From the sequence record OR544955: a stretch of 64,000 nucleotides of DNA; one strand, written 5' to 3'. This document shows positions 1,977 through 64,000 of the stretch, piece by piece. A model generated the notes under the pieces. The model was not told the origin of the DNA. It searched no databases and saw nothing but the letters and a program-made list of their open reading frames with translations. This stretch comes from Escherichia phage vB_EcoP_EP32B. Within the stretch, counting starts at the first letter, position 1, and every line of letters starts with the position of its first letter. Both the position numbers and the translations under genes were made by a program.

Positions 1977-2390
1977 ATGAATATTTCTGAAACTCGCGGT
2001 AAATGGTTCAAGATTGTTAAAGAAGACGAAGAACTCCAAGATAAGTTTCCTGAATTAAAGAAAGATACGATCATCAAGGTAATTGGTACTACTACCGAAG
2101 ATGGTTATGGCGACCATGGCATTATCGAAGTGATGTTGAACACAGGTGAGAAACTTTGCATCTATGACCGTGATACTTCTCTTTGGTGCTTCTGGGAATC
2201 CCATTCAATAGATGAACTCGAAGAAATTGACCAAGTAGTTTGTGATGGTGGTCTTGGCGAATTCGAAGGTGAACGTATTTCTTATGCTTTAGCTAAATTA
2301 GCCGGTCAAGAAAATAACGACGGTTATGAAGGTAATCTGATGCAAGCAGCCGCAGAATACATTGAATATTTAGAAAGACGTTTAAGTTAA
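1977..2390 (+). CDS. hypothetical acidic protein (T4 pin/49.x position)
   Basis: 137-aa ORF between nrdC and gene 49. Confidence 0.5.
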   Translation: MNISETRGKWFKIVKEDEELQDKFPELKKDTIIKVIGTTTEDGYGDHGIIEVMLNTGEKLCIYDRDTSLWCFWESHSIDELEEIDQVVCDGGLGEFEGERISYALAKLAGQENNDGYEGNLMQAAAEYIEYLERRLS

Positions 2391-2429
2391 GTAATAAATA
2401 CCCTTATCTATTTAAGGTAAGGGTTTATC

Positions 2430-16374: not shown

Positions 16375-19059
16375 ATGAAAGAATTTTACTTAACGGTTGA
16401 ACAGATTGGTGATTCAATTTTTGAACGTTACATCGATTCTAATGGCCGTGAACGTACTCGTGAAGTAGAATATAAACCATCACTGTTTGCTCATTGTCCA
16501 GAAAGTCAGGCTACGAAATATTTCGATATCTACGGTAAGCCGTGTACTCGTAAGTTGTTCGCTAATATGCGTGATGCCTCCCAATGGATTAAACGTATGG
16601 AAGATATCGGACTTGAAGCACTTGGCATGGACGATTTCAAATTGGCGTATTTGTCTGACACTTATAACTATGAAATCAAATACGACCATACAAAAATTCG
16701 TGTGGCTAACTTCGACATCGAAGTAACATCTCCGGACGGGTTCCCTGAGCCGTCACAAGCAAAACATCCGATTGATGCTATCACCCATTATGACTCAATT
16801 GACGACAGGTTCTACGTATTTGATCTATTGAATTCTCCATATGGTAATGTAGAAGAATGGTCTATCGAAATTGCAGCTAAGCTTCAAGAACAAGGTGGTG
16901 ATGAAGTTCCATCCGAAATTATCGATAAAATCATTTATATGCCGTTCGATAACGAAAAAGAATTGTTGATGGAATATCTCAACTTCTGGCAACAGAAAAC
17001 TCCTGTCATTTTGACTGGATGGAACGTTGAGTCATTTGATATTCCATATGTGTATAACCGAATCAAGAATATTTTTGGCGAATCTACTGCGAAACGTTTA
17101 TCACCACATCGTAAAACTCGTGTTAAAGTTATCGAAAACATGTATGGTTCTCGTGAAATCATTACATTGTTCGGTATCTCTGTTCTTGATTATATTGACC
17201 TTTACAAAAAATTCTCTTTTACCAATCAACCGTCGTATTCTCTGGATTACATTTCAGAATTTGAATTGAACGTTGGTAAACTGAAATACGACGGTCCTAT
17301 TTCTAAACTTCGTTATAACATCATCGACGTATATCGTGTATTGCAAATTGATGCTAAACGCCAGTTCATTAACTTGAGTTTGGACATGGGTTATTATGCT
17401 AAGATACAGATTCAATCTGTGTTTAGCCCAATTAAAACATGGGATGCTATTATTTTTAATAGCCTTAAAGAACAAAACAAGGTGATTCCACAAGGTCGTT
17501 CGCATCCAGTTCAACCTTACCCGGGTGCTTTTGTTAAGGAACCTATTCCAAATCGATACAAATATGTAATGAGTTTCGACCTTACATCTCTGTATCCAAG
17601 TATTATTCGCCAAGTGAATATTAGCCCGGAAACAATAGCAGGAACGTTTAAAGTAGCTCCACTGCATGATTATATTAACGCAATCGCTGAACGTCCTTCA
17701 GATGTGTACAGTTGCTCTCCTAACGGCATGATGTATTATAAAGACCGTGACGGTGTTGTTCCAACTGAAATCACTAAGGTCTTTAATCAACGTAAAGAAC
17801 ATAAAGGTTATATGCTTGCAGCTCAACGTAATGGTGAAATAATTAAAGAGGCATTGCATAATCCTAATCTTTCTGTTGACGAACCATTAGATGTTGATTA
17901 TCGTTTCGACTTCAGCGATGAGATTAAAGAAAAGATTAAAAAGTTGTCTGCTAAATCTCTTAATGAAATGTTGTTTAGAGCTCAACGTACTGAAGTTGCA
18001 GGTATGACTGCACAGATTAACCGTAAATTGCTTATCAACTCACTTTATGGTGCACTTGGAAACGTTTGGTTCCGTTATTATGATTTGCGTAATGCTACTG
18101 CAATCACAACATTCGGACAAATGGCTTTACAGTGGATTGAACGTAAAGTTAATGAATATCTGAATGAAGTTTGCGGTACAGAAGGTGAAGCTTTCGTTCT
18201 TTATGGTGATACAGACTCTATTTACGTATCTGCTGATAAAATTATCGATAAGGTTGGTGAATCTAAATTCCGTGATACCAACCATTGGGTAGACTTCTTA
18301 GATAAGTTCGCTCGTGAACGTATGGAACCTGCTATTGATAGAGGTTTCCGTGAAATGTGCGAATACATGAATAATAAGCAACATTTGATGTTCATGGACC
18401 GAGAAGCTATCGCTGGTCCTCCGCTCGGTTCTAAAGGTATTGGTGGATTTTGGACTGGTAAGAAACGTTATGCATTAAACGTGTGGGATATGGAAGGTAC
18501 TCGTTACGCTGAGCCTAAACTCAAAATCATGGGTCTAGAGACTCAGAAATCTTCGACACCTAAAGCAGTACAGAAAGCTCTTAAAGAATGTATTCGTCGT
18601 ATGCTTCAAGAAGGTGAAGAATCATTACAAGAATATTTTAAAGAGTTTGAAAAAGAATTCCGTCAATTGAATTATATTAGCATCGCGTCGGTATCTTCTG
18701 CGAATAACATTGCTAAATATGATGTCGGTGGATTCCCTGGCCCCAAATGTCCGTTCCATATTCGTGGAATTCTGACATATAACCGAGCTATCAAAGGTAA
18801 TATCGATGCACCGCAAGTTGTAGAAGGTGAAAAAGTATATGTTCTGCCTTTACGTGAAGGAAACCCATTCGGTGATAAATGTATCGCATGGCCTTCTGGT
18901 ACGGAAATCACTGATTTAATCAAAGATGATGTACTTCATTGGATGGACTACACGGTTCTCCTTGAGAAGACATTTATTAAACCACTTGAAGGATTCACAT
19001 CAGCAGCTAAACTCGATTACGAGAAGAAAGCATCTCTGTTCGATATGTTTGATTTTTGA
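16375..19059 (+). CDS. 43: DNA polymerase gp43 (family B, RB69-type numbering)
   Basis: 894 aa; Exo I FDIE (D114/E116), D222, YGDTDS, KILINSLYG; strong match to recalled RB69 gp43. Confidence 0.97.
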   Translation: MKEFYLTVEQIGDSIFERYIDSNGRERTREVEYKPSLFAHCPESQATKYFDIYGKPCTRKLFANMRDASQWIKRMEDIGLEALGMDDFKLAYLSDTYNYEIKYDHTKIRVANFDIEVTSPDGFPEPSQAKHPIDAITHYDSIDDRFYVFDLLNSPYGNVEEWSIEIAAKLQEQGGDEVPSEIIDKIIYMPFDNEKELLMEYLNFWQQKTPVILTGWNVESFDIPYVYNRIKNIFGESTAKRLSPHRKTRVKVIENMYGSREIITLFGISVLDYIDLYKKFSFTNQPSYSLDYISEFELNVGKLKYDGPISKLRYNIIDVYRVLQIDAKRQFINLSLDMGYYAKIQIQSVFSPIKTWDAIIFNSLKEQNKVIPQGRSHPVQPYPGAFVKEPIPNRYKYVMSFDLTSLYPSIIRQVNISPETIAGTFKVAPLHDYINAIAERPSDVYSCSPNGMMYYKDRDGVVPTEITKVFNQRKEHKGYMLAAQRNGEIIKEALHNPNLSVDEPLDVDYRFDFSDEIKEKIKKLSAKSLNEMLFRAQRTEVAGMTAQINRKLLINSLYGALGNVWFRYYDLRNATAITTFGQMALQWIERKVNEYLNEVCGTEGEAFVLYGDTDSIYVSADKIIDKVGESKFRDTNHWVDFLDKFARERMEPAIDRGFREMCEYMNNKQHLMFMDREAIAGPPLGSKGIGGFWTGKKRYALNVWDMEGTRYAEPKLKIMGLETQKSSTPKAVQKALKECIRRMLQEGEESLQEYFKEFEKEFRQLNYISIASVSSANNIAKYDVGGFPGPKCPFHIRGILTYNRAIKGNIDAPQVVEGEKVYVLPLREGNPFGDKCIAWPSGTEITDLIKDDVLHWMDYTVLLEKTFIKPLEGFTSAAKLDYEKKASLFDMFDF

Positions 19060-30671: not shown

Positions 30672-31088
30672 ATGATTTATTATATGCACAAAAATGCGCC
30701 ATTTAAATATGGTAAATTTCCTAATGCACAATGTTATAATATAACGCCTAATGAAAATAATAACGGATACCATCTCGGTGTAATTTTTGTAATTGTTAAA
30801 GATAACGAAATCGTTGCCTGGGCAGATTTTAAAGGTACAACATATGATGTTAATCCTGTGCCTTTCACATATTATAATTTAATGGATTTGGCATATGATT
30901 ATAATTGGTTTAATCATGAAGGATTTGACATCTCTTATTCTAGCTATTCATTATGTCCTATGAGCCGAGCTCACGGTAAAGATGTATCATATCTTTCAAT
31001 TCGGAAACGTGTAAACTTCAAACGTAGTACAGAGTATGTTGGTGGACTCTTTGTTAAAGATAATAAAATAACATTAGTTATCCTCTAA
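30672..31088 (+). CDS. hypothetical protein; reading frame appears to continue in -1 frame to about 31294
   Basis: 138-aa ORF; adjacent start-less open frame 31067-31294. Confidence 0.4.
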   Translation: MIYYMHKNAPFKYGKFPNAQCYNITPNENNNGYHLGVIFVIVKDNEIVAWADFKGTTYDVNPVPFTYYNLMDLAYDYNWFNHEGFDISYSSYSLCPMSRAHGKDVSYLSIRKRVNFKRSTEYVGGLFVKDNKITLVIL

Positions 31089-33224: not shown

Positions 33225-33313
33225 AATATCTCCTTAGTTACCTATTATTTATTACGCTTTATAAAATTAATGTTAGAATTAACTCACTTATTACTGAATT
33301 GAAAGGAAAAATA

Positions 33314-33628
33314 ATGGCGCACTTTAATGAATGTTCACAACTTATTTCTGGTGTTGATAAAGCAGAAGAAGCTTATTTTAATGCTCTGATTCACGAAGAT
33401 AAAGACCCACTTCAGGTAATGCTTGATATGCAGAAATCTTTACAGGTTCGTCTGGCAAATGACAAGCCTGAACATAACAAACATCCTGATGAATTGGCTA
33501 CTGCCGGTGATGTTGTTGATTGGCTGCGTAATCAGAAAGATTATATTGATGATGAATTCCGTGAACTGTTGACTTCACTTGGTGGTATGATTATAAATAC
33601 ACCTGTAATTAAACAACAAAGGAGTTAA
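33314..33628 (+). CDS. MazG-like all-alpha NTP pyrophosphatase (gene 56 dCTPase-like), possibly short
   Basis: 104 aa; DDEFRELL motif; position after 61. Confidence 0.45.
   Translation: MAHFNECSQLISGVDKAEEAYFNALIHEDKDPLQVMLDMQKSLQVRLANDKPEHNKHPDELATAGDVVDWLRNQKDYIDDEFRELLTSLGGMIINTPVIKQQRS
33592..33599 (+). promoter_or_regulatory. late promoter TATAAATA for soc
   Basis: exact TATAAATA about 32 nt upstream of soc ATG. Confidence 0.7.
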
Positions 33629-33630
33629 TT

Positions 33631-33774
33631 ATGGGTGGTTATGTAAACATCAAAACCTTTACGCATCCTGCTGGTGAAGGCAAAGAAGTTAAAGGTATGG
33701 AAGTTTCTGTACCGTTTGAGATTTATTCAAACGAACATCGGATTGCTGATTCTCATTACCAAGTAAGTGGTTAA
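33631..33774 (+). CDS. soc: small outer capsid protein Soc, short form (47 aa)
   Basis: MGGYVNIKTF..EVSVPFEIYSNEHRIADSHYQ resembles recalled T4/RB69 Soc N-terminal half. Confidence 0.6.
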   Translation: MGGYVNIKTFTHPAGEGKEVKGMEVSVPFEIYSNEHRIADSHYQVSG

Positions 33775-33782
33775 ATAATTTA

Positions 33783-33808
33783 AGGAATCCTTCGGGATTC
33801 CTTTTTTT
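33783..33808 (+). terminator. UUCG-tetraloop hairpin plus T7 run
   Basis: AGGAATCC TTCG GGATTCC TTTTTTT. Confidence 0.75.
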
Positions 33809-33817
33809 GTTTCTACA

Positions 33818-33848
33818 GTTTACAACCACTAAAAACTGTGTTAAGATA
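33818..33848 (+). promoter_or_regulatory. early promoter
   Basis: -35 GTTTACA, 17-nt spacer, -10 TAAGAT. Confidence 0.55.
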
Positions 33849-33875
33849 TTTTTACTTACTCAAGAGGAGAACAAT

Positions 33876-34103
33876 ATGTTAAATCGTTGGATTAAACCTA
33901 ATAACACATTAGGTGCTTTGATTGCTCAAGAAGTTTCATTAAAGTACGGTCTTGGATATTACGATGATGTAGTCGTACACTCATTCATGATGGATGGTGA
34001 AGACGTCAAATTTAATGCCGAAATCCGCTGGGATGACGGTGGTGTTCGTTTTGTTCGAGGAACAATTAATGCTTACGATACTGAAGAAGTTGTTTGCTGT
34101 TAA
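33876..34103 (+). CDS. hypothetical protein
   Basis: RBS GAGGAGAACAAT. Confidence 0.45.
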   Translation: MLNRWIKPNNTLGALIAQEVSLKYGLGYYDDVVVHSFMMDGEDVKFNAEIRWDDGGVRFVRGTINAYDTEEVVCC

Positions 34104-34116
34104 ACCAGGCGAAGGT

Positions 34117-34317
34117 ATGATGCCTATTCCTGATACACACGAAAAAAGTTGGGAATATATCGGTGACGGCATGATGGAAGAAGTTGTTCGTCCAAAAACA
34201 AAACAGGTTAATGCTTCAAGCTCTTCAAGTTATAATCATTCATACGTATCGTCTTGGCCTGGTGATTCTGGGTCAAGTTATTCTGATTGTGGTTCAAACT
34301 CAGGGAGCTGCGAATGA
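34117..34317 (+). CDS. hypothetical Ser-rich protein
   Basis: internal ATG of ORF 33994..34317. Confidence 0.35.
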   Translation: MMPIPDTHEKSWEYIGDGMMEEVVRPKTKQVNASSSSSYNHSYVSSWPGDSGSSYSDCGSNSGSCE

Positions 34318-34493
34318 ACAAGATAGTTAAATGGTTTAAAAGCTGGGACGATGGTGTCGGTCCAGAAGATTGGCTGGATGTTCTTGAAGAGAATATGGCT
34401 AAAGAATTCCAAAAACATGAAGAGAAGCTCGTCGAAGATGAAGGCGAACGTATTGTAAAACTTTATATGGGTGAACCATCGAGGAAATTATAA
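34314..34493 (+). CDS. hypothetical protein
   Basis: ATGA coupling. Confidence 0.35.
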   Translation: MNKIVKWFKSWDDGVGPEDWLDVLEENMAKEFQKHEEKLVEDEGERIVKLYMGEPSRKL

Positions 34494-34957
34494 TGGATGC
34501 TATGTTATTTAAAATGTATTTGCTTGAAGCCAAGTCGTTTAAACATATACCAGTAGAAGATAAGACTCCACTAGAAATAGCTATTCTCATTAACAAAAGT
34601 CTAAATAATCCGCAATATATCGTAGAAGAATTCTGCAAATTGCAGATTCCTAAAGGTTACAAAATTCGTGTAGAGCGAGTTGGAGCTATTACTCGTTCTA
34701 AAAATTCTCCGTTTAGTCTTGAAGAAGGCATAAAGGACTTAGGTTATGAATCTACGGAAAATGCCGTTTATGCGAATCCTGAAAAGCGTTTAGACTTGTT
34801 TGAAAAGCGAGACCACAAATATTTTGCCAAAAAATACTTTATTACATCATTAGCAGATTTAATCCATTTGCAACGAGCTATTTGGAAATTTTTTAAGACA
34901 AAAGGTGTAGCGCTAGAAACATTTTCTGAACCGGCTAGTTTTTATCTCGGTGAATAA
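34493..34957 (+). CDS. hypothetical protein
   Basis: 154-aa ORF. Confidence 0.5.
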   Translation: MDAMLFKMYLLEAKSFKHIPVEDKTPLEIAILINKSLNNPQYIVEEFCKLQIPKGYKIRVERVGAITRSKNSPFSLEEGIKDLGYESTENAVYANPEKRLDLFEKRDHKYFAKKYFITSLADLIHLQRAIWKFFKTKGVALETFSEPASFYLGE

Positions 34958-34958
34958 T

Positions 34959-35138
34959 ATGGACTTGATGAGTATGTTTGATGAGCCTGAAGTTGAGGCT
35001 CCTAAAGTTCATCGTAGTGAACTTGTCGATGAACTAGATAGTATTATACAACGTCACGGCTTTAGTTTACCATTAGAAGTCCTGAAAGACCTTGCCTCTT
35101 ATTATGATGACCCTCCACCATGGAGTCCTTGGAAATGA
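34959..35138 (+). CDS. hypothetical acidic protein
   Basis: 59 aa. Confidence 0.4.
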   Translation: MDLMSMFDEPEVEAPKVHRSELVDELDSIIQRHGFSLPLEVLKDLASYYDDPPPWSPWK

Positions 35139-35299
35139 AAGAGAAATTGAAAGAGAAATTCTTACTAGAAATCAAGGAAAAAGACTTTGAGACATGGTAT
35201 CGAATGGTGAAAGGGTTGACATTGCTTTTTAAAGCATCGTTATTCATGTTAGAACAACCTGGTCCTGATGGTCCTTTAGTAGGAAAGCTTAAAAAGTAG
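35135..35299 (+). CDS. hypothetical protein (54 aa)
   Basis: ATGA coupling. Confidence 0.3.
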   Translation: MKEKLKEKFLLEIKEKDFETWYRMVKGLTLLFKASLFMLEQPGPDGPLVGKLKK

Positions 35300-35328
35300 T
35301 TTACATTCCCTCCTCTCGTGTTATGATA
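35299..35328 (+). promoter_or_regulatory. early promoter
   Basis: -35 GTTTACA 35299-305, -10 TATGAT 35322-27. Confidence 0.55.
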
Positions 35329-35354
35329 GGCTTATCTTTAAATGGAGGTCTATC

Positions 35355-35936
35355 ATGACATGTCAATCTGAACTTCAAGAACGCGAATACCTAACAAATC
35401 TGATTGATAGCAAATTCACCCGCCAAGAACAAAACATTCTCTGGGCTTGCACCGATTCTAAGGAAGACCCGGATTTCCACTATGAATTAGACCATCTTGT
35501 TCGTAAGCATATGACTTCTACAGTACCGGTAGAGCTCTACCGTGGTGTAACTCCAGAAGAAGTAGAACGTCTTTCCCTTCTTTCTGTTGGATGCCATTGG
35601 TCTCCTGGACGAGTAACATCGTTCACAACTGATTTCAGTACAGCTCGTCAATTCTCCGGGAGATGGGAATATCAGACGTACACTATTCTTAGTCTCAGGA
35701 ATGCTCCATTCATTTTTGATTACTACCAAAACATGGTTAACATTGTACTCGCCGGAAAGAACCCTAAGCATGTTATGGAAGAAACGCGTGTTGACGTCCT
35801 AGATATGATTGAATCTGAACAAGAGTACATGGTCTCAGGTATCTCTAGATTTGAGATTGTGGAAATTGAAGACTTAGAATATGACCCTTTATCTCGATTA
35901 TACAAAATCATTCATTTGAAAATGTTGAATTTTTAG
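35355..35936 (+). CDS. ADP-ribosyltransferase, ModA/ModB family
   Basis: R-S-E motifs: ELYRG, SFTTD, ESEQEY; 193 aa. Confidence 0.6.
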   Translation: MTCQSELQEREYLTNLIDSKFTRQEQNILWACTDSKEDPDFHYELDHLVRKHMTSTVPVELYRGVTPEEVERLSLLSVGCHWSPGRVTSFTTDFSTARQFSGRWEYQTYTILSLRNAPFIFDYYQNMVNIVLAGKNPKHVMEETRVDVLDMIESEQEYMVSGISRFEIVEIEDLEYDPLSRLYKIIHLKMLNF

Positions 35937-36046
35937 TGTACAAACTCTTCCGATGATGATACTATACCTCTATCAACCACAGGAGAAACCTAAATGTTTA
36001 TGCCGTATAACGAGTGTGAAATTGAAGAAATGGTTCGTCGTGCTCA

Positions 36047-36505
36047 ATGCCCGGATTATCAAGATTAAGTGCAATTGTTCGTAGAAATTGGTCGTCTTCT
36101 GTTCCTGAGACAATGTATCGTGGAATCTCTAAGAAAACTATGGCCACACTCGATGATAAAGGTATTGGTAGTATTATTAAATTTGACAGAGTAATGAGCT
36201 TCAGCCCAGTGTTCGGTGTAGCACGTAACTTTGCTTCGTATAATTTTTACGGAACATTTAATATGTTCTGCATCAAAGATGCACCATTTGCTTTCAACTT
36301 CCGTGAACATATGCTTAACATGATTCTGGCTGCGCCATCTTGTGAGTTCAATGGAGCTTTCCCTGAAGCGACAAGACGGTCTAATGCTAGACTTATATCT
36401 GACGAATGTGAATTTATGCTCCCTATAGGGACTACACTGCGTGTAGATTCTATTATTCAAGATGGAAGTTATACAATCTGGAATCTGTCTATTGTCAGTT
36501 ACTGA
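36047..36505 (+). CDS. ADP-ribosyltransferase paralog; N-terminus apparently frameshifted (RBS and ATG at about 35994 in another frame)
   Basis: MYRG, SFSPV, ECEFML motifs; upstream 24-codon ORF with strong RBS ends at 36069. Confidence 0.55.
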   Translation: MPGLSRLSAIVRRNWSSSVPETMYRGISKKTMATLDDKGIGSIIKFDRVMSFSPVFGVARNFASYNFYGTFNMFCIKDAPFAFNFREHMLNMILAAPSCEFNGAFPEATRRSNARLISDECEFMLPIGTTLRVDSIIQDGSYTIWNLSIVSY

Positions 36506-54535: not shown

Positions 54536-54623
54536 AATCATTTAAAGAACGTTTAGAAATGAAGTTCCTGAAATCTGTTGGCAAACTCTGGTTATTCCTG
54601 GAGTTCGTCATTACTCTAAAGAT

Positions 54624-56154: not shown

Positions 56155-56814
56155 TTATTTAGCCCTTCCTAGTATTCGGACCGCTTGGTTGCATATAGCC
56201 GCTAAGCGATCTTCCTCAAGTATATTATTCCCCTTATACCAATACATCGTCACAGTTCCAGCATAGATGTTATCCAAATTAAAGTATGGACAACTATACA
56301 TATAAGAAAGTTCGGCAGTCTTAGATTTTGTAGGCAAAAATGCAAATTCTGATTTAGATGAGAAATGACGGCCGCTTAAATGAATTATATATTCATTAGC
56401 CGTTTTATCCACTGGGAATCCGCCAAGGGACTTTTCAGAAATTGTGCTAGGTAGTTTGCCTTCATAAGCTATAAGGTCGACAAAATAATTTAAGTTTTTA
56501 GGTCTGAAAGAATACACAGCACTAAAATCTGCACCAGATGAGATATGAACTATTTGCAGTTGTTCTAGAGCCGCAGATTCAAAACGTAAAGCTCGTTCTT
56601 TTTGGATTATTTCAGTATAAGTATCATACTTAGCTCTTACATAATAATCCAGCAAAATACTTCCTTTGTACCATATTAGTGCCATTAGGAACAAAAGAAT
56701 AATTACCGCCACTCGGGACATTAAAACCTTTCCGGTAGCGTTATCTTTGAAAATACGATCTAGCAACCCAAATAGAATATCACTAAGCGAAAATGATACT
56801 TTTGGTGTTGCCAT
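56155..56814 (-). CDS. t: holin T
   Basis: 219 aa; single N-terminal TM, FSLSDILFG.LDR.FKDNATGKVL; recalled T4 t match. Confidence 0.95.
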   Translation of the reverse strand: MATPKVSFSLSDILFGLLDRIFKDNATGKVLMSRVAVIILLFLMALIWYKGSILLDYYVRAKYDTYTEIIQKERALRFESAALEQLQIVHISSGADFSAVYSFRPKNLNYFVDLIAYEGKLPSTISEKSLGGFPVDKTANEYIIHLSGRHFSSKSEFAFLPTKSKTAELSYMYSCPYFNLDNIYAGTVTMYWYKGNNILEEDRLAAICNQAVRILGRAK

Positions 56815-56823
56815 AATACCTCC

Positions 56824-57375
56824 TTACTTAAAGATATTTATAATCGCTTTGATAATAGATTTGTTTTCAAGGTCAGGGAATTTAGGGAATTCGCCGCCAA
56901 GATGTTCATGTTTTTCTAAAAGGGCAAAGAATTTTTTGAGCTCTTTAAATTTTCGTTTTTCTTCTCTATTAGCAACCTCTGCGTCAATAAGAGAACTTAA
57001 AACACTGAATAATTTATAGAGTTCATGAATTTTCTTATCACGTTGAACTACACGTTTATATGCTTCATCTTCCTTCCACCCGTCGTCGGTCCAAAGGTCA
57101 AATTCACCAGGTTCTTCTGTAGTAACATTTTGAAGAGCACCTGGAGTGTCAATAACAATTTTTTGCTTATCATATGTCCATACTGTTTTTCCACGATGGT
57201 CTTCAACATATACCCATTCTTGTTCGCGTTCATCAAATACAACAGCATAGCCTTCTTTAGGGTCTAAAGGTTTTTTTGGTGTCGAATGAGCCGGAAATCC
57301 TACGCCTTTTAATGGTTTATAATTTTCTTCTTTGTAAAATTCTTTAGTGTCAAAATAATAGTGATAGAGTTTCAT
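56824..57375 (-). CDS. 38: tail fiber assembly/adhesin protein gp38 (T4 type)
   Basis: 183 aa; MKLYHYYFDTKEFYKEENYKP..FALLEKHEHLGGEFP. Confidence 0.9.
   Translation of the reverse strand: MKLYHYYFDTKEFYKEENYKPLKGVGFPAHSTPKKPLDPKEGYAVVFDEREQEWVYVEDHRGKTVWTYDKQKIVIDTPGALQNVTTEEPGEFDLWTDDGWKEDEAYKRVVQRDKKIHELYKLFSVLSSLIDAEVANREEKRKFKELKKFFALLEKHEHLGGEFPKFPDLENKSIIKAIINIFK
56835..56842 (-). promoter_or_regulatory. late promoter TATAAATA for t (inside 3-prime end of gene 38)
   Basis: + strand TATTTATA about 20 nt upstream of t start. Confidence 0.6.
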
Positions 57376-57408
57376 ATTATAAAAAAGGGACCGAAGTCCC
57401 TTCTCCTT
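57376..57408 (-). promoter_or_regulatory. gene 38 translation initiation region: SD separated from AUG by a UUCG hairpin
   Basis: mRNA UAAGGAGAA GGGACUUCGGUCCC UUUUUUAUAAU AUG. Confidence 0.65.
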
Positions 57409-58992
57409 ATGCTAAACGAACGATATAGTTAAAAGCAACGTTTTTAACTGTGTTTTCTGTATTTCCTGTGGCATTTACAGTTATTGTATGTCCATGGGAA
57501 CCAATTGCAACAGTATGAGAATGAGCACCAATACCTACCGAATGGGTATGAGCGCCAATACCCACAGTATGAGCATGGTTACCCGTGGTACTTGTGGTTC
57601 CTGACCAAGAGTGTGTATGGTTACCTTCTGAAGAAGTTTTGGCTATATTCGACCCTGCAGTAGCACCGTTCACGGTTCCAGTGAATTTAGAGCACTATGG
57701 TTATGAGACTTAATACCATCTGCTTCTGTACTTAATACAGCACGCCCAGATGGTTTACCTTTAATCGTTTGCCCACGCATATCAGGCAGAGAGCCGGAAG
57801 GATACACCGCAGCTAACTTAGGATACAAGCCAGCATCAAATGTTTGACCTTCCATTATGGCATAACCTTCAGGAGGTGTATCAGTAGGCCATGGAATCGG
57901 AGCACCAATTGGGTAACTCGACACAATATCCGTCTTAAGGTTATTTATTGTGGTATTCAAGTTAGCAAAATTACCAGAACCGCCGGTGATATTACCATCA
58001 GTACCAATAATTGTCCTAATTGCATACGGTAATTAGGAGAAATGCGACTATGACTAGTTATAACAACAAGTTTATTATCATTATCAACGGTCACCATATT
58101 ACCGCCAGCACCATCATCACCTAACGTAACAGAATGGCGCATTTGAACCATACCGTTAATAGTGGTTCATTTTACCACCAGCATTGTACCCGATATGGGT
58201 TTGTCCGTCTCCAGCATTGTTATTATCAGCTTGTGTTTGAACCCTTGGTCTTCTGAACGTCCAAATATACCTTTACGAGTACTACGGAAACTGTCAGGAG
58301 TAATAGAAGCAACAGAATTCCAATTACCTACTAAATCATAAACTCCTTGCTTAATATATTTTAAGCCAGTAGCAGCATCCCCCAAAGCAATATATCTTTC
58401 TCCCATTGGAGTAGGAGAGCCGTAGTTATTGGTATTTTCGTCAGCAGTAATTGTGCCAATAGCAAGTGAACGACGTAATACCATTGCTCCATCATTACGA
58501 AGACCCATTAATTTAGTAGTAAGTATATTTCCGGTCCACCAAGAAATTTCATCATTCTTACCAGTTTGAGCTGAAGCGATTTCATGGTAAATAGTTCCGC
58601 CTGATTTAGCTCGAACTTTACGAAGATAGTTTATACCATTTTCTTCACCTGTTCCAGGATAAACATATTGAACTAATGACTGCGAATCGTATTGTCCAAA
58701 TGCTTTTGTGTCCAAAACAATGGTTTTCGTATTAACTTGCGGAGCAGAAACTATACCATTAGCGGAGTTAATATTGCCGGACGCAGAAATATTACCTGCG
58801 TTGAGTTACATTACCGTTAATATCCCCGCCCTTAGCAAAGCCTAGGCTAATAATATTACCGAGGTCATCTTTAGTAAAAAGAGTTCGATCTTTTAAGTTT
58901 ATCGCTAATTCGCCTTCGGCTAATTGTGCTGCAGTAGGATTAACTCCTGCTACTTTGCTTCTTTTAAATTGTATCTGTTTTAATGTAGCCAT
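57407..58992 (-). pseudogene. 37: distal tail fiber gene 37 (T4 type), reading frame broken into at least five segments
   Basis: N-term [13 protein letters not shown]; internal [23 protein letters not shown]; His-box C-term [22 protein letters not shown]; frame changes near 58790, 58235, 58155, 57670. Confidence 0.8.
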
Positions 58993-59000
58993 AAGTCCTC

Positions 59001-59666
59001 TTAATAATAGCCGAAATCTTGAACAGAATCTTTAATTACAATCTGGTCGAAACGAGGAACATGATTAGCCTCAGACGCCGGATTCTGTGAGAAAAAGTTT
59101 GGTGCTGTTAAAGTACCAGTCATGGTATCGCCTTTACGCAATACACGGGAATTTGCGTTATCCGTAACAATATTTATTCGTCCATCAACATAATCTTTTC
59201 TTGTGAGATCATTTGCTGCTATAGGAGCAGCCGCATCACTTCTTACTTGACCAGCTGCCGACACAACGCCTTTTGTATTAATATCACCATTACGTGTATT
59301 AATTACTACAGTTCTACCCGCTGTTCCTTGTGATGATTTAAAACCAATACCATACCACGAAACAATATCAATATTTGCTGTAACAAAAGTAGCTGCATCT
59401 CCATTACCAGGATAAATACCAGATTGATTTGTATTGTTTATAGCATATGGTATTTGAACACCGCCGTTAAATGTTACCTTTGAAGCATAAGTACCACCAT
59501 TAGCTTTAGAAACGAAATCGTTATCAGCAGCTTGTGGTTTATTATATTCTGAATAGAGTTTAAACGTTTTATACAGGACGTCATCACCTGCTGGCATTAA
59601 AGGGAAATTACCTTGATGCCATATAACAGCACCGCCAGTTGTACTACCAGCTTTTAAATCGGCCAT
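59001..59666 (-). CDS. 36: tail fiber protein gp36
   Basis: 221 aa; [38 protein letters not shown]. Confidence 0.92.
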
Positions 59667-59728: not shown

Positions 59729-60856
59729 TTATTCTGATGCTTCTTTAAATTCTTGTCCAAATACCTTACCAGTATCAGTTGAAGATTGAGTAGGTAATGT
59801 CATTATGTCTGGAGCACTTAAAGATTCTGAAACATAATTTACACGAATACCATTTATACCAAACTCCGCAGGTTTTGAAACGCTTCCATTACATGATACT
59901 TCAGTGAATATAACGTTTCTTAATCCACCTTGCCCGACTGGAGCCGTACGATAACAATAAATCGTGAACCCGTCAGCACCAGCAGGAATTTCTATGTAGT
60001 CTTCATATATCTTCCATTCACCTGCACCCCCGTCAAAGTTTATATCCTTAAATGAAATAGGTGAAGTAGAAGGAGATTTAAAGAAACGAATAGAAAGTCG
60101 TGTCGTCCCTTGTGCTAACAAATCAGCATCGGCCATTAGTTGGAATTTCATATAAAGGAAATCTCCAGGCTTCAATTTATACCCAGCGAGAGGTGTAATA
60201 ATGGATGTTGTAGGCATCCTTTTAATTTCATTATTAGTACCTCCAATGGCAGATAAAAATGTGTCTGTCGATTCGTACGTACGTCTAGGGAAGCCGGTAG
60301 CACCAATATCATCGATCGTGTCGTACACAACATCAAGTGGTGTACTATAGTCGGTTGAAGTTTTCTTATTACTATACTTAATATGTTCTAGTGCTATAGC
60401 ATTCTTACCAGAAATATAAAATGCAGAATAAGAAATGTCCACTATATTTAAAACTTGTTGAGCTAATGGAATAGCAGAACTCCCAGCTTTAGTAAACCAT
60501 GCAAGAACTTCTGGTGGAAAGTTTGTTTTAGCGTTAGTAACAAGAGCAAATATAAAATTTGAAGCATATGTGTCCATGAAAGTAACAAATGCACTTGACG
60601 TGGCGTCGTTTTCAGTAGAGAAATTATATGTCTTAGATTCAACTACTGTACCTGTTGTAGGATTTATTACACGAACGTTTAATCCAACGGAAAAAACCTG
60701 AGACCCAAGTGGATTATCCTGGAACTTAATATAAGCAGGAGATGTTGATAGCGGGCAAGAGCCCGCTATGCTTAATTTAAATCGTACTGAATTGCTTTCC
60801 GATAAAAATGGCGTTTGGACGTATCCTTGTCCAAACTTAGCCATAAATTTTTCCAT
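59729..60856 (-). CDS. 35: tail fiber hinge protein gp35
   Basis: 375 aa; MEKFMAKFGQGYVQTPFLSESNSVR. Confidence 0.92.
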   Translation of the reverse strand: MEKFMAKFGQGYVQTPFLSESNSVRFKLSIAGSCPLSTSPAYIKFQDNPLGSQVFSVGLNVRVINPTTGTVVESKTYNFSTENDATSSAFVTFMDTYASNFIFALVTNAKTNFPPEVLAWFTKAGSSAIPLAQQVLNIVDISYSAFYISGKNAIALEHIKYSNKKTSTDYSTPLDVVYDTIDDIGATGFPRRTYESTDTFLSAIGGTNNEIKRMPTTSIITPLAGYKLKPGDFLYMKFQLMADADLLAQGTTRLSIRFFKSPSTSPISFKDINFDGGAGEWKIYEDYIEIPAGADGFTIYCYRTAPVGQGGLRNVIFTEVSCNGSVSKPAEFGINGIRVNYVSESLSAPDIMTLPTQSSTDTGKVFGQEFKEASE

Positions 60857-63800: not shown

Positions 63801-64000
63801 GACGAATATTTGAATCCGCACGGATAATACGAAGACGTGATTTCTGATCGCCTTCCCATATACGCCATAAACTATTTGAAGCATCAAAAACAAAAAACGC
63901 GTCAGAGTCATTTCTGCCTTCGGCAATATGAGTCCCGACTTCACCAATAGACGTTGTATCATCAAATGTTTTAACAATTGTATGATACAGTGGGTTTAAT
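60865..64000 (-). CDS. 34: proximal long tail fiber protein gp34, 5-prime partial (runs off window end)
   Basis: frame open from 60865 to 64000; ..RIIRADSNIRPNEEVLIFGTNNATTGTINLTLPTGILSGDTVKISMNYMRKGQ.. to ..VKFEWIE. Confidence 0.95.
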   Translation of the reverse strand, partial: LNPLYHTIVKTFDDTTSIGEVGTHIAEGRNDSDAFFVFDASNSLWRIWEGDQKSRLRIIRADSNIRPNEEVLIFGTNNATTGTINLTLPTGILSGDTVKISMNYMRKGQTVKIKAAEGDTIASSVALLQFPKRSEYPPDAQWVSVTELEFNGTTSYVPVLELAYIEDTDSDTHYWVVQQNVPTVERVDAGTDATRARLGVIALATQAQANVDLENTPAKEVAITPETLANRTATEARRGIAKIATTAQVNQNSTATFVDDTIVTPKKLNERTATETRRGLAEIATQAETDAGLDDTTIITPKKLQARQGSETLSGIVKYVSTTSATPAETRGAAGTNVYNKTVNNLTISPKALDQYKATYAQQGAVILAVDSEVIAGQSQAGYSHAVVTPETLHKKTSTDGRIGLIEIATQVETNAGTDYTRAVTPKTLNDRKATEGLSGIAEIATQVEFDTGTDDTRISTPLKIKTHFDSSDRTSVNSDSGLIEEGTLWNHYTLDISKANETQRGTLRVATQAESNAGTLDDVLITPKKLLGTKSTETSEGVIKVATRAETVTGTSANTAVSPKNLKWIVQNEPTWAATTAIRGFVKTSSGSITFVGNDTVGSTQPLESYEKNSYAISPYELNRVLANYLPLKAKAIDSNLLDGLDSSQFIRRDIAQTVNGSLTLTQQTNLSAPLVSSSTATFGGSVSANSTLTISNTGTATRLIFEKGPQTGTNPAQTITIRVWGNEFGGGSDTTRSTVFEVGDETSNHFYSQRNKAGNITFSINGTVMPINVNASGTLNANGVATFGRSVTANGEFISKSANAFRAISGDYGFFIRNDGGSTYFMITASGDQTGGFNGLRPLSINNQSGQITIGEGLIIANGATINSGGLTVNSRIRSQGTKTSDLYTRAPTSDNVGFWSIDINDSATYNQFPGYFKMVEKTNEVSGLPYLERGEEVKSPGTLTQFGNTLDSLYQDWITYPTTPEARTTRWTRTWQKTKNSWSSFVQVFDGGNPPQPSDIGALPSDNATIGNLTIRDFLRIGNVRIIPDPVNKSVKFEWIE

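Follow-up and report, generated by a model that had tools for sequence, protein, structure and literature searches.

Among the T-even phages of the genus Mosigvirus (RB69-like), the nearest described counterpart of the locus considered here is that of O157 typing phage 3 (tp3), in which gene 37 runs between genes 36 and 38 with a length of 3,282 nt. Seven complete Mosigvirus copies of this gene were compared, and in all of the six besides tp3 (JN02, JS09, ST0, p000v, mar007P3 and ATK47; 6/6) it is a single ORF of 3,099-3,282 nt. For T4, the structure 2XGF covers the tip of gp37 (T4 residues 785-1026), in which the stretch from the collar to the last His-box repeats is said, after the paper on that structure, to contribute to the needle and the distal tip, a mapping that is approximate. 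The genomes of the typing phages, of phiC120 and of five STEC phages from 2025 are all de novo assemblies; the tp3 record itself is a Velvet assembly, and its contig end is arbitrary and falls inside gene 34. In the record of typing phage 13 (KP869111.1, positions 153789-157706), which is described as a partial genome, 206 N lie inside gene 37 and the gene is unannotated; gene 37 is a place where assembly in this group repeatedly runs into trouble.

The window analysed here is a stretch of 64,000 nt from the record of Escherichia phage vB_EcoP_EP32B (OR544955). It belongs to a T-even phage of the same genus and is about 98% identical to tp3, and no database record was found to be closer to it than tp3. 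We establish that genes 36 and 38 flank a true gene 37 of the T4 type, encoding the distal half of the long tail fibre, from which five internal segments are absent in the record; and we argue, with a probability of roughly 85%, that this loss is an artefact of the building of the record, by whatever route, and does not reflect the biology of the phage. The late tail-fibre cluster (34-35-36-37-38-t) lies on the minus strand in an order identical to that in tp3, and the genes around gene 37 are the following.

60865 to past the window end, minus strand: gene 34, an open frame running off the window
59729-60856, minus strand: gene 35, intact, in an ungapped alignment block
59001-59666, minus strand: gene 36, 221 aa, intact
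56824-57375, minus strand: gene 38, intact, for a T4-type chaperone of tail-fibre assembly (183 aa, Caudo_TAP)
56155-56814, minus strand: holin gene t, the 3' member of the cluster

Genes 35, 36 and 38 have the lengths found in relatives and lie within ungapped alignment blocks, gene 38 being 552 nt long as it is in JN02, JS09 and ST0; Pfam-type matches on the flanks are to Phage_T4_gp36, Caudo_TAP and holin. The product of gene 38 is a T4-type gp38 chaperone and not a T2-type adhesin. A break in gene 34, which might be read from an ORF list that starts at an internal TTG, was considered and rejected, since translation keeps the frame open to the window end. Two further features of the cluster may be recorded. 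The gp35 sequence (59729-60856, minus strand) matches the Pfam family ILEI (PF15711) with E = 5.8e-7, above the gathering score, a match that is unexpected for a fibre hinge protein. A hairpin, GGGACTTCGGTCCC, followed by T6, is found at 57381-57400 (minus strand), between the stop of gene 37 and the start of gene 38; to judge from its sequence, the hairpin with its T6 tract looks like a candidate intrinsic terminator or stabiliser within the fibre operon.

Gene 37 occupies 57407-58992 on the minus strand, that is, 1,586 nt, in which five short minus-strand ORFs (66, 182, 64, 96 and 88 aa) are present. Using blastn and blastx we mapped six pieces of the gene onto tp3 gp37, and these pieces abut exactly in the window yet skip 350, 43, 722, 334 and 247 nt of tp3. 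Read in the direction of the gene, the pieces and the junctions between them are the following.

58801-58992, minus strand: piece A, the gene 37 N-terminus (tp3 gp37 aa 1-64, frame 1)
58800/58801: junction 1, tp3 gene nt 193-542 missing (350 nt), with 0 nt microhomology
58243-58800, minus strand: piece B1 (tp3 gp37 aa 182-367, frame 2)
58242/58243: junction 2, tp3 gene nt 1101-1143 missing (43 nt)
58158-58242, minus strand: piece B2 (tp3 gp37 aa 382-410, frame 1)
58157/58158: junction 3, tp3 gene nt 1229-1950 missing (722 nt)
58010-58157, minus strand: piece C (tp3 gp37 aa 651-699, frame 2), 100% identical to tp3
58009/58010: junction 4, tp3 gene nt 2099-2432 missing (334 nt), with a gap of equal size against ST0
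57691-58009, minus strand: piece D (tp3 gp37 aa 812-917, frame 1), with the phage tail collar domain and a match to 2XGF
57690/57691: junction 5, tp3 gene nt 2752-2998 missing (247 nt)
57407-57690, minus strand: piece E (tp3 gp37 aa 1000-1093, frame 3), with the needle of His-x-His repeats and, at the conserved C-terminus, ...NYIVRLA

The pieces are colinear with tp3 gene 37, with nucleotide identities of 90.7-100% (the lowest value includes the 43-nt gap) and amino-acid identities to tp3 gp37 of 96-100%, and the reading frame changes along the gene as 1/2/1/2/1/3. In total 1,696 nt are missing with respect to tp3, or 565 of 1,093 residues; none of the five deletion lengths is divisible by 3, and at all five junctions (5/5) the microhomology is 0 nt. 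Piece A is identical to tp3 gp37 and in frame over aa 1-64 (blastx), and a stop two codons past the junction closes it as the 66-aa ORF 58792-58992, so that the first stop comes after 66 codons where a continuous gene 37 would have about 1,030-1,090. The identity of the gene is nevertheless plain from its position between genes 36 and 38, its N-terminus, its collar domain and its His-x-His needle. Domain matches within the pieces are to PF07484 (5.7e-12) and PF03335 (5.6e-6), and pieces D and E together match the T4 gp37 tip in 2XGF with E = 3.5e-82. The locus is thus like that of tp3 in its place between genes 36 and 38 and in the colinearity of what is retained, and differs from it in that tp3 has one continuous ORF whereas the window copy is without the five internal segments. 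Likewise, it shares with the T4 tip the collar domain, the His-x-His repeats and the ...NYIVRLA end, carried by pieces D and E, but is without the stretch from the collar to the last His-box repeats.

A preliminary description of this DNA had reported much of this layout, and in these respects it is borne out. It gave gene 37 as shortened to about 1.6 kb, and we find 1,586 nt against 3,099-3,282 nt in the seven Mosigvirus genomes; the gp37 peptides that it quoted from different frames are all present, in the frame order given above; and the loss of about 15 codons with a change of frame that it placed near 58235 is the 43-nt deletion at 58242/58243. At that site each of the 76 database relatives with coverage of 80% or more for the piece around junction 2 aligns in two pieces (76/76), with 686 nt in place of the 643 nt present here. 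Its statement that the flanking genes are intact also holds, genes 35, 36 and 38 being full length and ungapped and gene 34 being open to the window end.

Loss of sequence is window-wide and not peculiar to gene 37, a point on which the preliminary description is silent. Aligned with tp3 and with ST0, the whole window has about 20 deletions of 12-722 nt, while the longest insertion is no more than 3 nt; besides those in gene 37 there are about 15, of 12-594 nt, and the sequence lost in them is present in both tp3 and ST0. The gaps seen against tp3 recur against ST0, an independent genome, often with equal size, whereas between tp3 and ST0 there are only a few indels, of the cassette type and in either direction. 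The share of sequence lost is 52% in gene 37 and 3.1% in the remainder of the window. The gaps outside gene 37 are located as follows (window positions).

1540: gap of 214 nt
5526: gap of 296 nt
6216: gap of 28 nt
11165: gap of 14 nt
12816: gap of 88 nt in gene 46, frame-breaking
17313: gap of 27 nt in the DNA polymerase gene, in-frame
19395: gap of 159 nt in kpsF, in-frame
30920 and 31458: two gaps near 31000, of 24 nt and 12 nt
33589: gap of 594 nt
33762: gap of 92 nt
36063: gap of 91 nt in the gene for a Mod-like ADP-ribosylase, frame-breaking
45615: gap of 16 nt
49977: gap of 14 nt in denB, frame-breaking
either side of the 29-nt island 54557-54586: within a small hypothetical gene, a pair of gaps of about 92 nt and about 80 nt

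As a result, gene 46 is cut to 520 aa from 562 aa, the NTP pyrophosphohydrolase is also truncated or shortened by deletion, and two genes near 33300-36500 are without their ends. Searches for the gene 37, kpsF and DNA-polymerase junctions found none of them uninterrupted in any phage record, and a 37-mer across junction 3 of gene 37 had no exact match in the viral, genome and metagenome collections. A 36-mer with five substitutions private to the window likewise had no exact match there, and exact protein look-ups found no entry for the 66-aa N-terminal fragment or for gp38. The retained island at 54557-54586, at 29 nt, is too short for a contig or a single read. One further difference from tp3, of 176 nt, lies at window 2378-2391 between pinA and the gene for endonuclease VII, where two tiny ORFs are gone; the junction has a 14-nt overlap, and on its right side the window and ST0 align without a break. 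Judged from this alignment, this site (about 2385) resembles a naturally variable cassette rather than a dropout.

The gaps differ in character from the substitutions that surround them. Five of the 20 deletion lengths are divisible by 3, which is the random expectation, and microhomology at the junctions averages 0.2 nt where 0.73 nt would be expected at random. The substitutions with respect to tp3 number 1,207 (1.9%); within 20 long ORFs, which hold 582 of these 1,207 and to which the codon-position figures apply, 507 of 582 (87%) fall at codon position 3. Synonymous changes make up about 88%, with a Ts/Tv of about 3.9; 44% of the substitutions are common to ST0, and private alleles behave like shared ones. 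Indels of 1-4 nt lie mostly between annotated genes. The codon-position, synonymy and Ts/Tv statistics rule out a noisy or non-natural backbone, and the first two of them are also unlike the relaxed selection of a decaying pseudogene or defective remnant, as is the 96-100% amino-acid identity of the retained gp37 pieces. Since the backbone is under strong purifying selection and the gaps are blind to frame, the record must rest on a well-selected natural genome, over which the large gaps were superimposed without ever being exposed to selection. The underlying phage is an ordinary, natural, previously unsampled Mosigvirus.

Where the gaps fall is also informative. What gene 37 has lost is its least conserved sequence, agreement with tp3 among the seven Mosigvirus genes being 0.76 for lost and 0.90 for retained sequence; a placement as good was obtained in none of 3,281 circular shifts (0/3,281) and in 1 of 20,000 random placements, and the first gap starts exactly where conservation drops from 0.99 to 0.73. 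Outside gene 37, tp3 and ST0 agree at 96-100% over many of the lost segments, and an account of all gaps by divergence alone, which holds inside gene 37 only, was therefore rejected. Within 30 nt of the junctions the substitution rate is 0.0098 (12 observed), against a background of 0.019. Finally, at the one end of the record that was compared, window base 64000 falls on position 168731 of the 168733 nt of tp3, within gene 34. Because a match with the arbitrary contig end of tp3 is not credible as a coincidence, this shared end suggests that tp3 supplied the coordinates for the source sequence.

Considering these observations, loss of sequence in this record, which the preliminary description had offered as one of two possibilities, is the reading that we favour, the loss being record-wide, one-directional, frame-blind and without homology at the junctions. 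Consensus records from which positions of zero or low coverage have been removed are a known class of artefact. As to the specific route, we lean towards read mapping onto tp3, though with much less assurance than we hold the artefact itself. In a pipeline of the kind that we infer, a consensus would have been laid on the coordinates of the tp3 record, for instance by mapping reads and applying a depth threshold, and positions without usable coverage would have been deleted rather than written as N. Reads from the hypervariable fibre segments would be unmappable to a diverged reference, so that gene 37 would be hit hardest, and smaller gaps elsewhere would stem from scattered low-coverage spots; an alternative consensus anchored on tp3, or a gap-stripping step, would lead to the same outcome. 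The likeness between the window and a reference-guided consensus with uncovered positions removed lies in the presence of deletions only, the end shared with the reference and the clean junctions, and further in the concentration of dropouts in hypervariable segments and the lower SNP rate beside gaps. In particular, the one-directional pattern would arise because mapping cannot call long insertions, the low substitution rate by the junctions fits a reversion to reference bases at low depth, and a depth threshold is compatible with the short islands (29, 85 and 148 nt) that are retained.

The window departs from such an artefact in that some of its gaps lie in conserved sequence. Since tp3 and ST0 are much alike at many of the gaps outside gene 37, these would have to stem from low depth and not from divergence. 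Two counterpoints bear on mapping as the route. The 29-nt island between two gaps needs the depth-threshold explanation, and around the 27-nt gap in the DNA polymerase gene phages ESCO47 and a20, not tp3, are the closer matches to the window, so that reads evidently can map across about 8% divergence. At that place (window 17253-17373) the sequence is 99.2% identical to ESCO47 and a20, and tp3 is not among the best eight matches listed, of which the lowest is at 91.9%; by sequence similarity this indicates a probable mosaic ancestry of the underlying phage.

We have weighed these data against readings in which the deletions are real. That the record describes a defective, multiply deleted T-even genome, without distal half-fibres and non-infective, for example present as degraded DNA or carried by a helper, appears to us improbable. 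It would account directly for a sequence that, as written, stops after 66 codons and changes frame five times in an adsorption-essential gene, and for the damage to other genes. It would also demand about 20 independent deletions without insertions, nonsense mutations or a relaxed substitution pattern, and junctions free of the short direct repeats that illegitimate deletions in T4 typically use. Moreover, the gaps in gene 37 track inter-phage divergence, which mapping senses and mutation would not, the end in common with the tp3 record points to a derived sequence, and T-even phages are strictly lytic, with no prophage state in which decay could proceed. The non-infective genome that the preliminary description gave as its other possibility is thus true of the sequence taken literally, which would provide no long tail fibres, but we do not think that the real phage has this sequence. 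Very improbable, in our judgement, are physically real losses, biased towards the hypervariable fibre segments, in a population of T-even genomes that carry multiple deletions and lack fibres; if real, such a population might consist of helper-complemented defective genomes, or of degraded phage DNA persisting in the sample.

Collapse of a de novo assembly through internal repeats of the fibre gene is, we consider, exceedingly unlikely, even though short repeated motifs do occur near the 3' end of gene 37 and the typing phage 13 record has its 206 N inside the same gene. A collapse needs a k-mer shared by both endpoints, and in tp3 no nucleotide is shared at any of the five junctions (5/5), although the junction flanks are 96-100% identical to tp3; the sole repeats, units of 27-30 nt and a 51-nt pair 207 nt apart, lie at no endpoint. 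The check for collapse in the repetitive fibre region that the preliminary description had proposed thus found no repeat at any deletion endpoint, and repeat collapse would in addition leave the gaps in the non-repetitive DNA polymerase gene and kpsF unexplained. We give next to no credence to a functional short or split fibre gene, expressed by programmed frameshifting or as separate subunits. The retained pieces are 96-100% identical in amino-acid sequence to intact gp37, which speaks for such a reading, but the five frame changes go in different directions with stops at or just past the junctions, none of these changes is shared by relatives (one ORF in 7/7), and lesions of the same type occur in unrelated genes; that a trimeric shaft could lose 565 of its 1,093 residues at arbitrary phase seems implausible.

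Loss during the building of the record therefore remains our preferred account of gene 37, and the main value of the finding is as a warning about data quality, the record being gapped throughout. Read at face value, it would lead to gene 37, gene 46 and the Mod-like ADP-ribosylase gene being wrongly called pseudogenes, with the same risk for denB through its 14-nt gap, to the DNA polymerase and kpsF being mis-sized, and to a fibre-less phage being inferred. If, on the other hand, the deletions were real, these would be genomes unable to make distal half-fibres. We find nothing new here on tail-fibre biology, and the state of gene 37 is best filed as a record artefact; what is missing from it are exactly the segments of the fibre for receptor specificity, and no other part of the fibre tells as much about host range.
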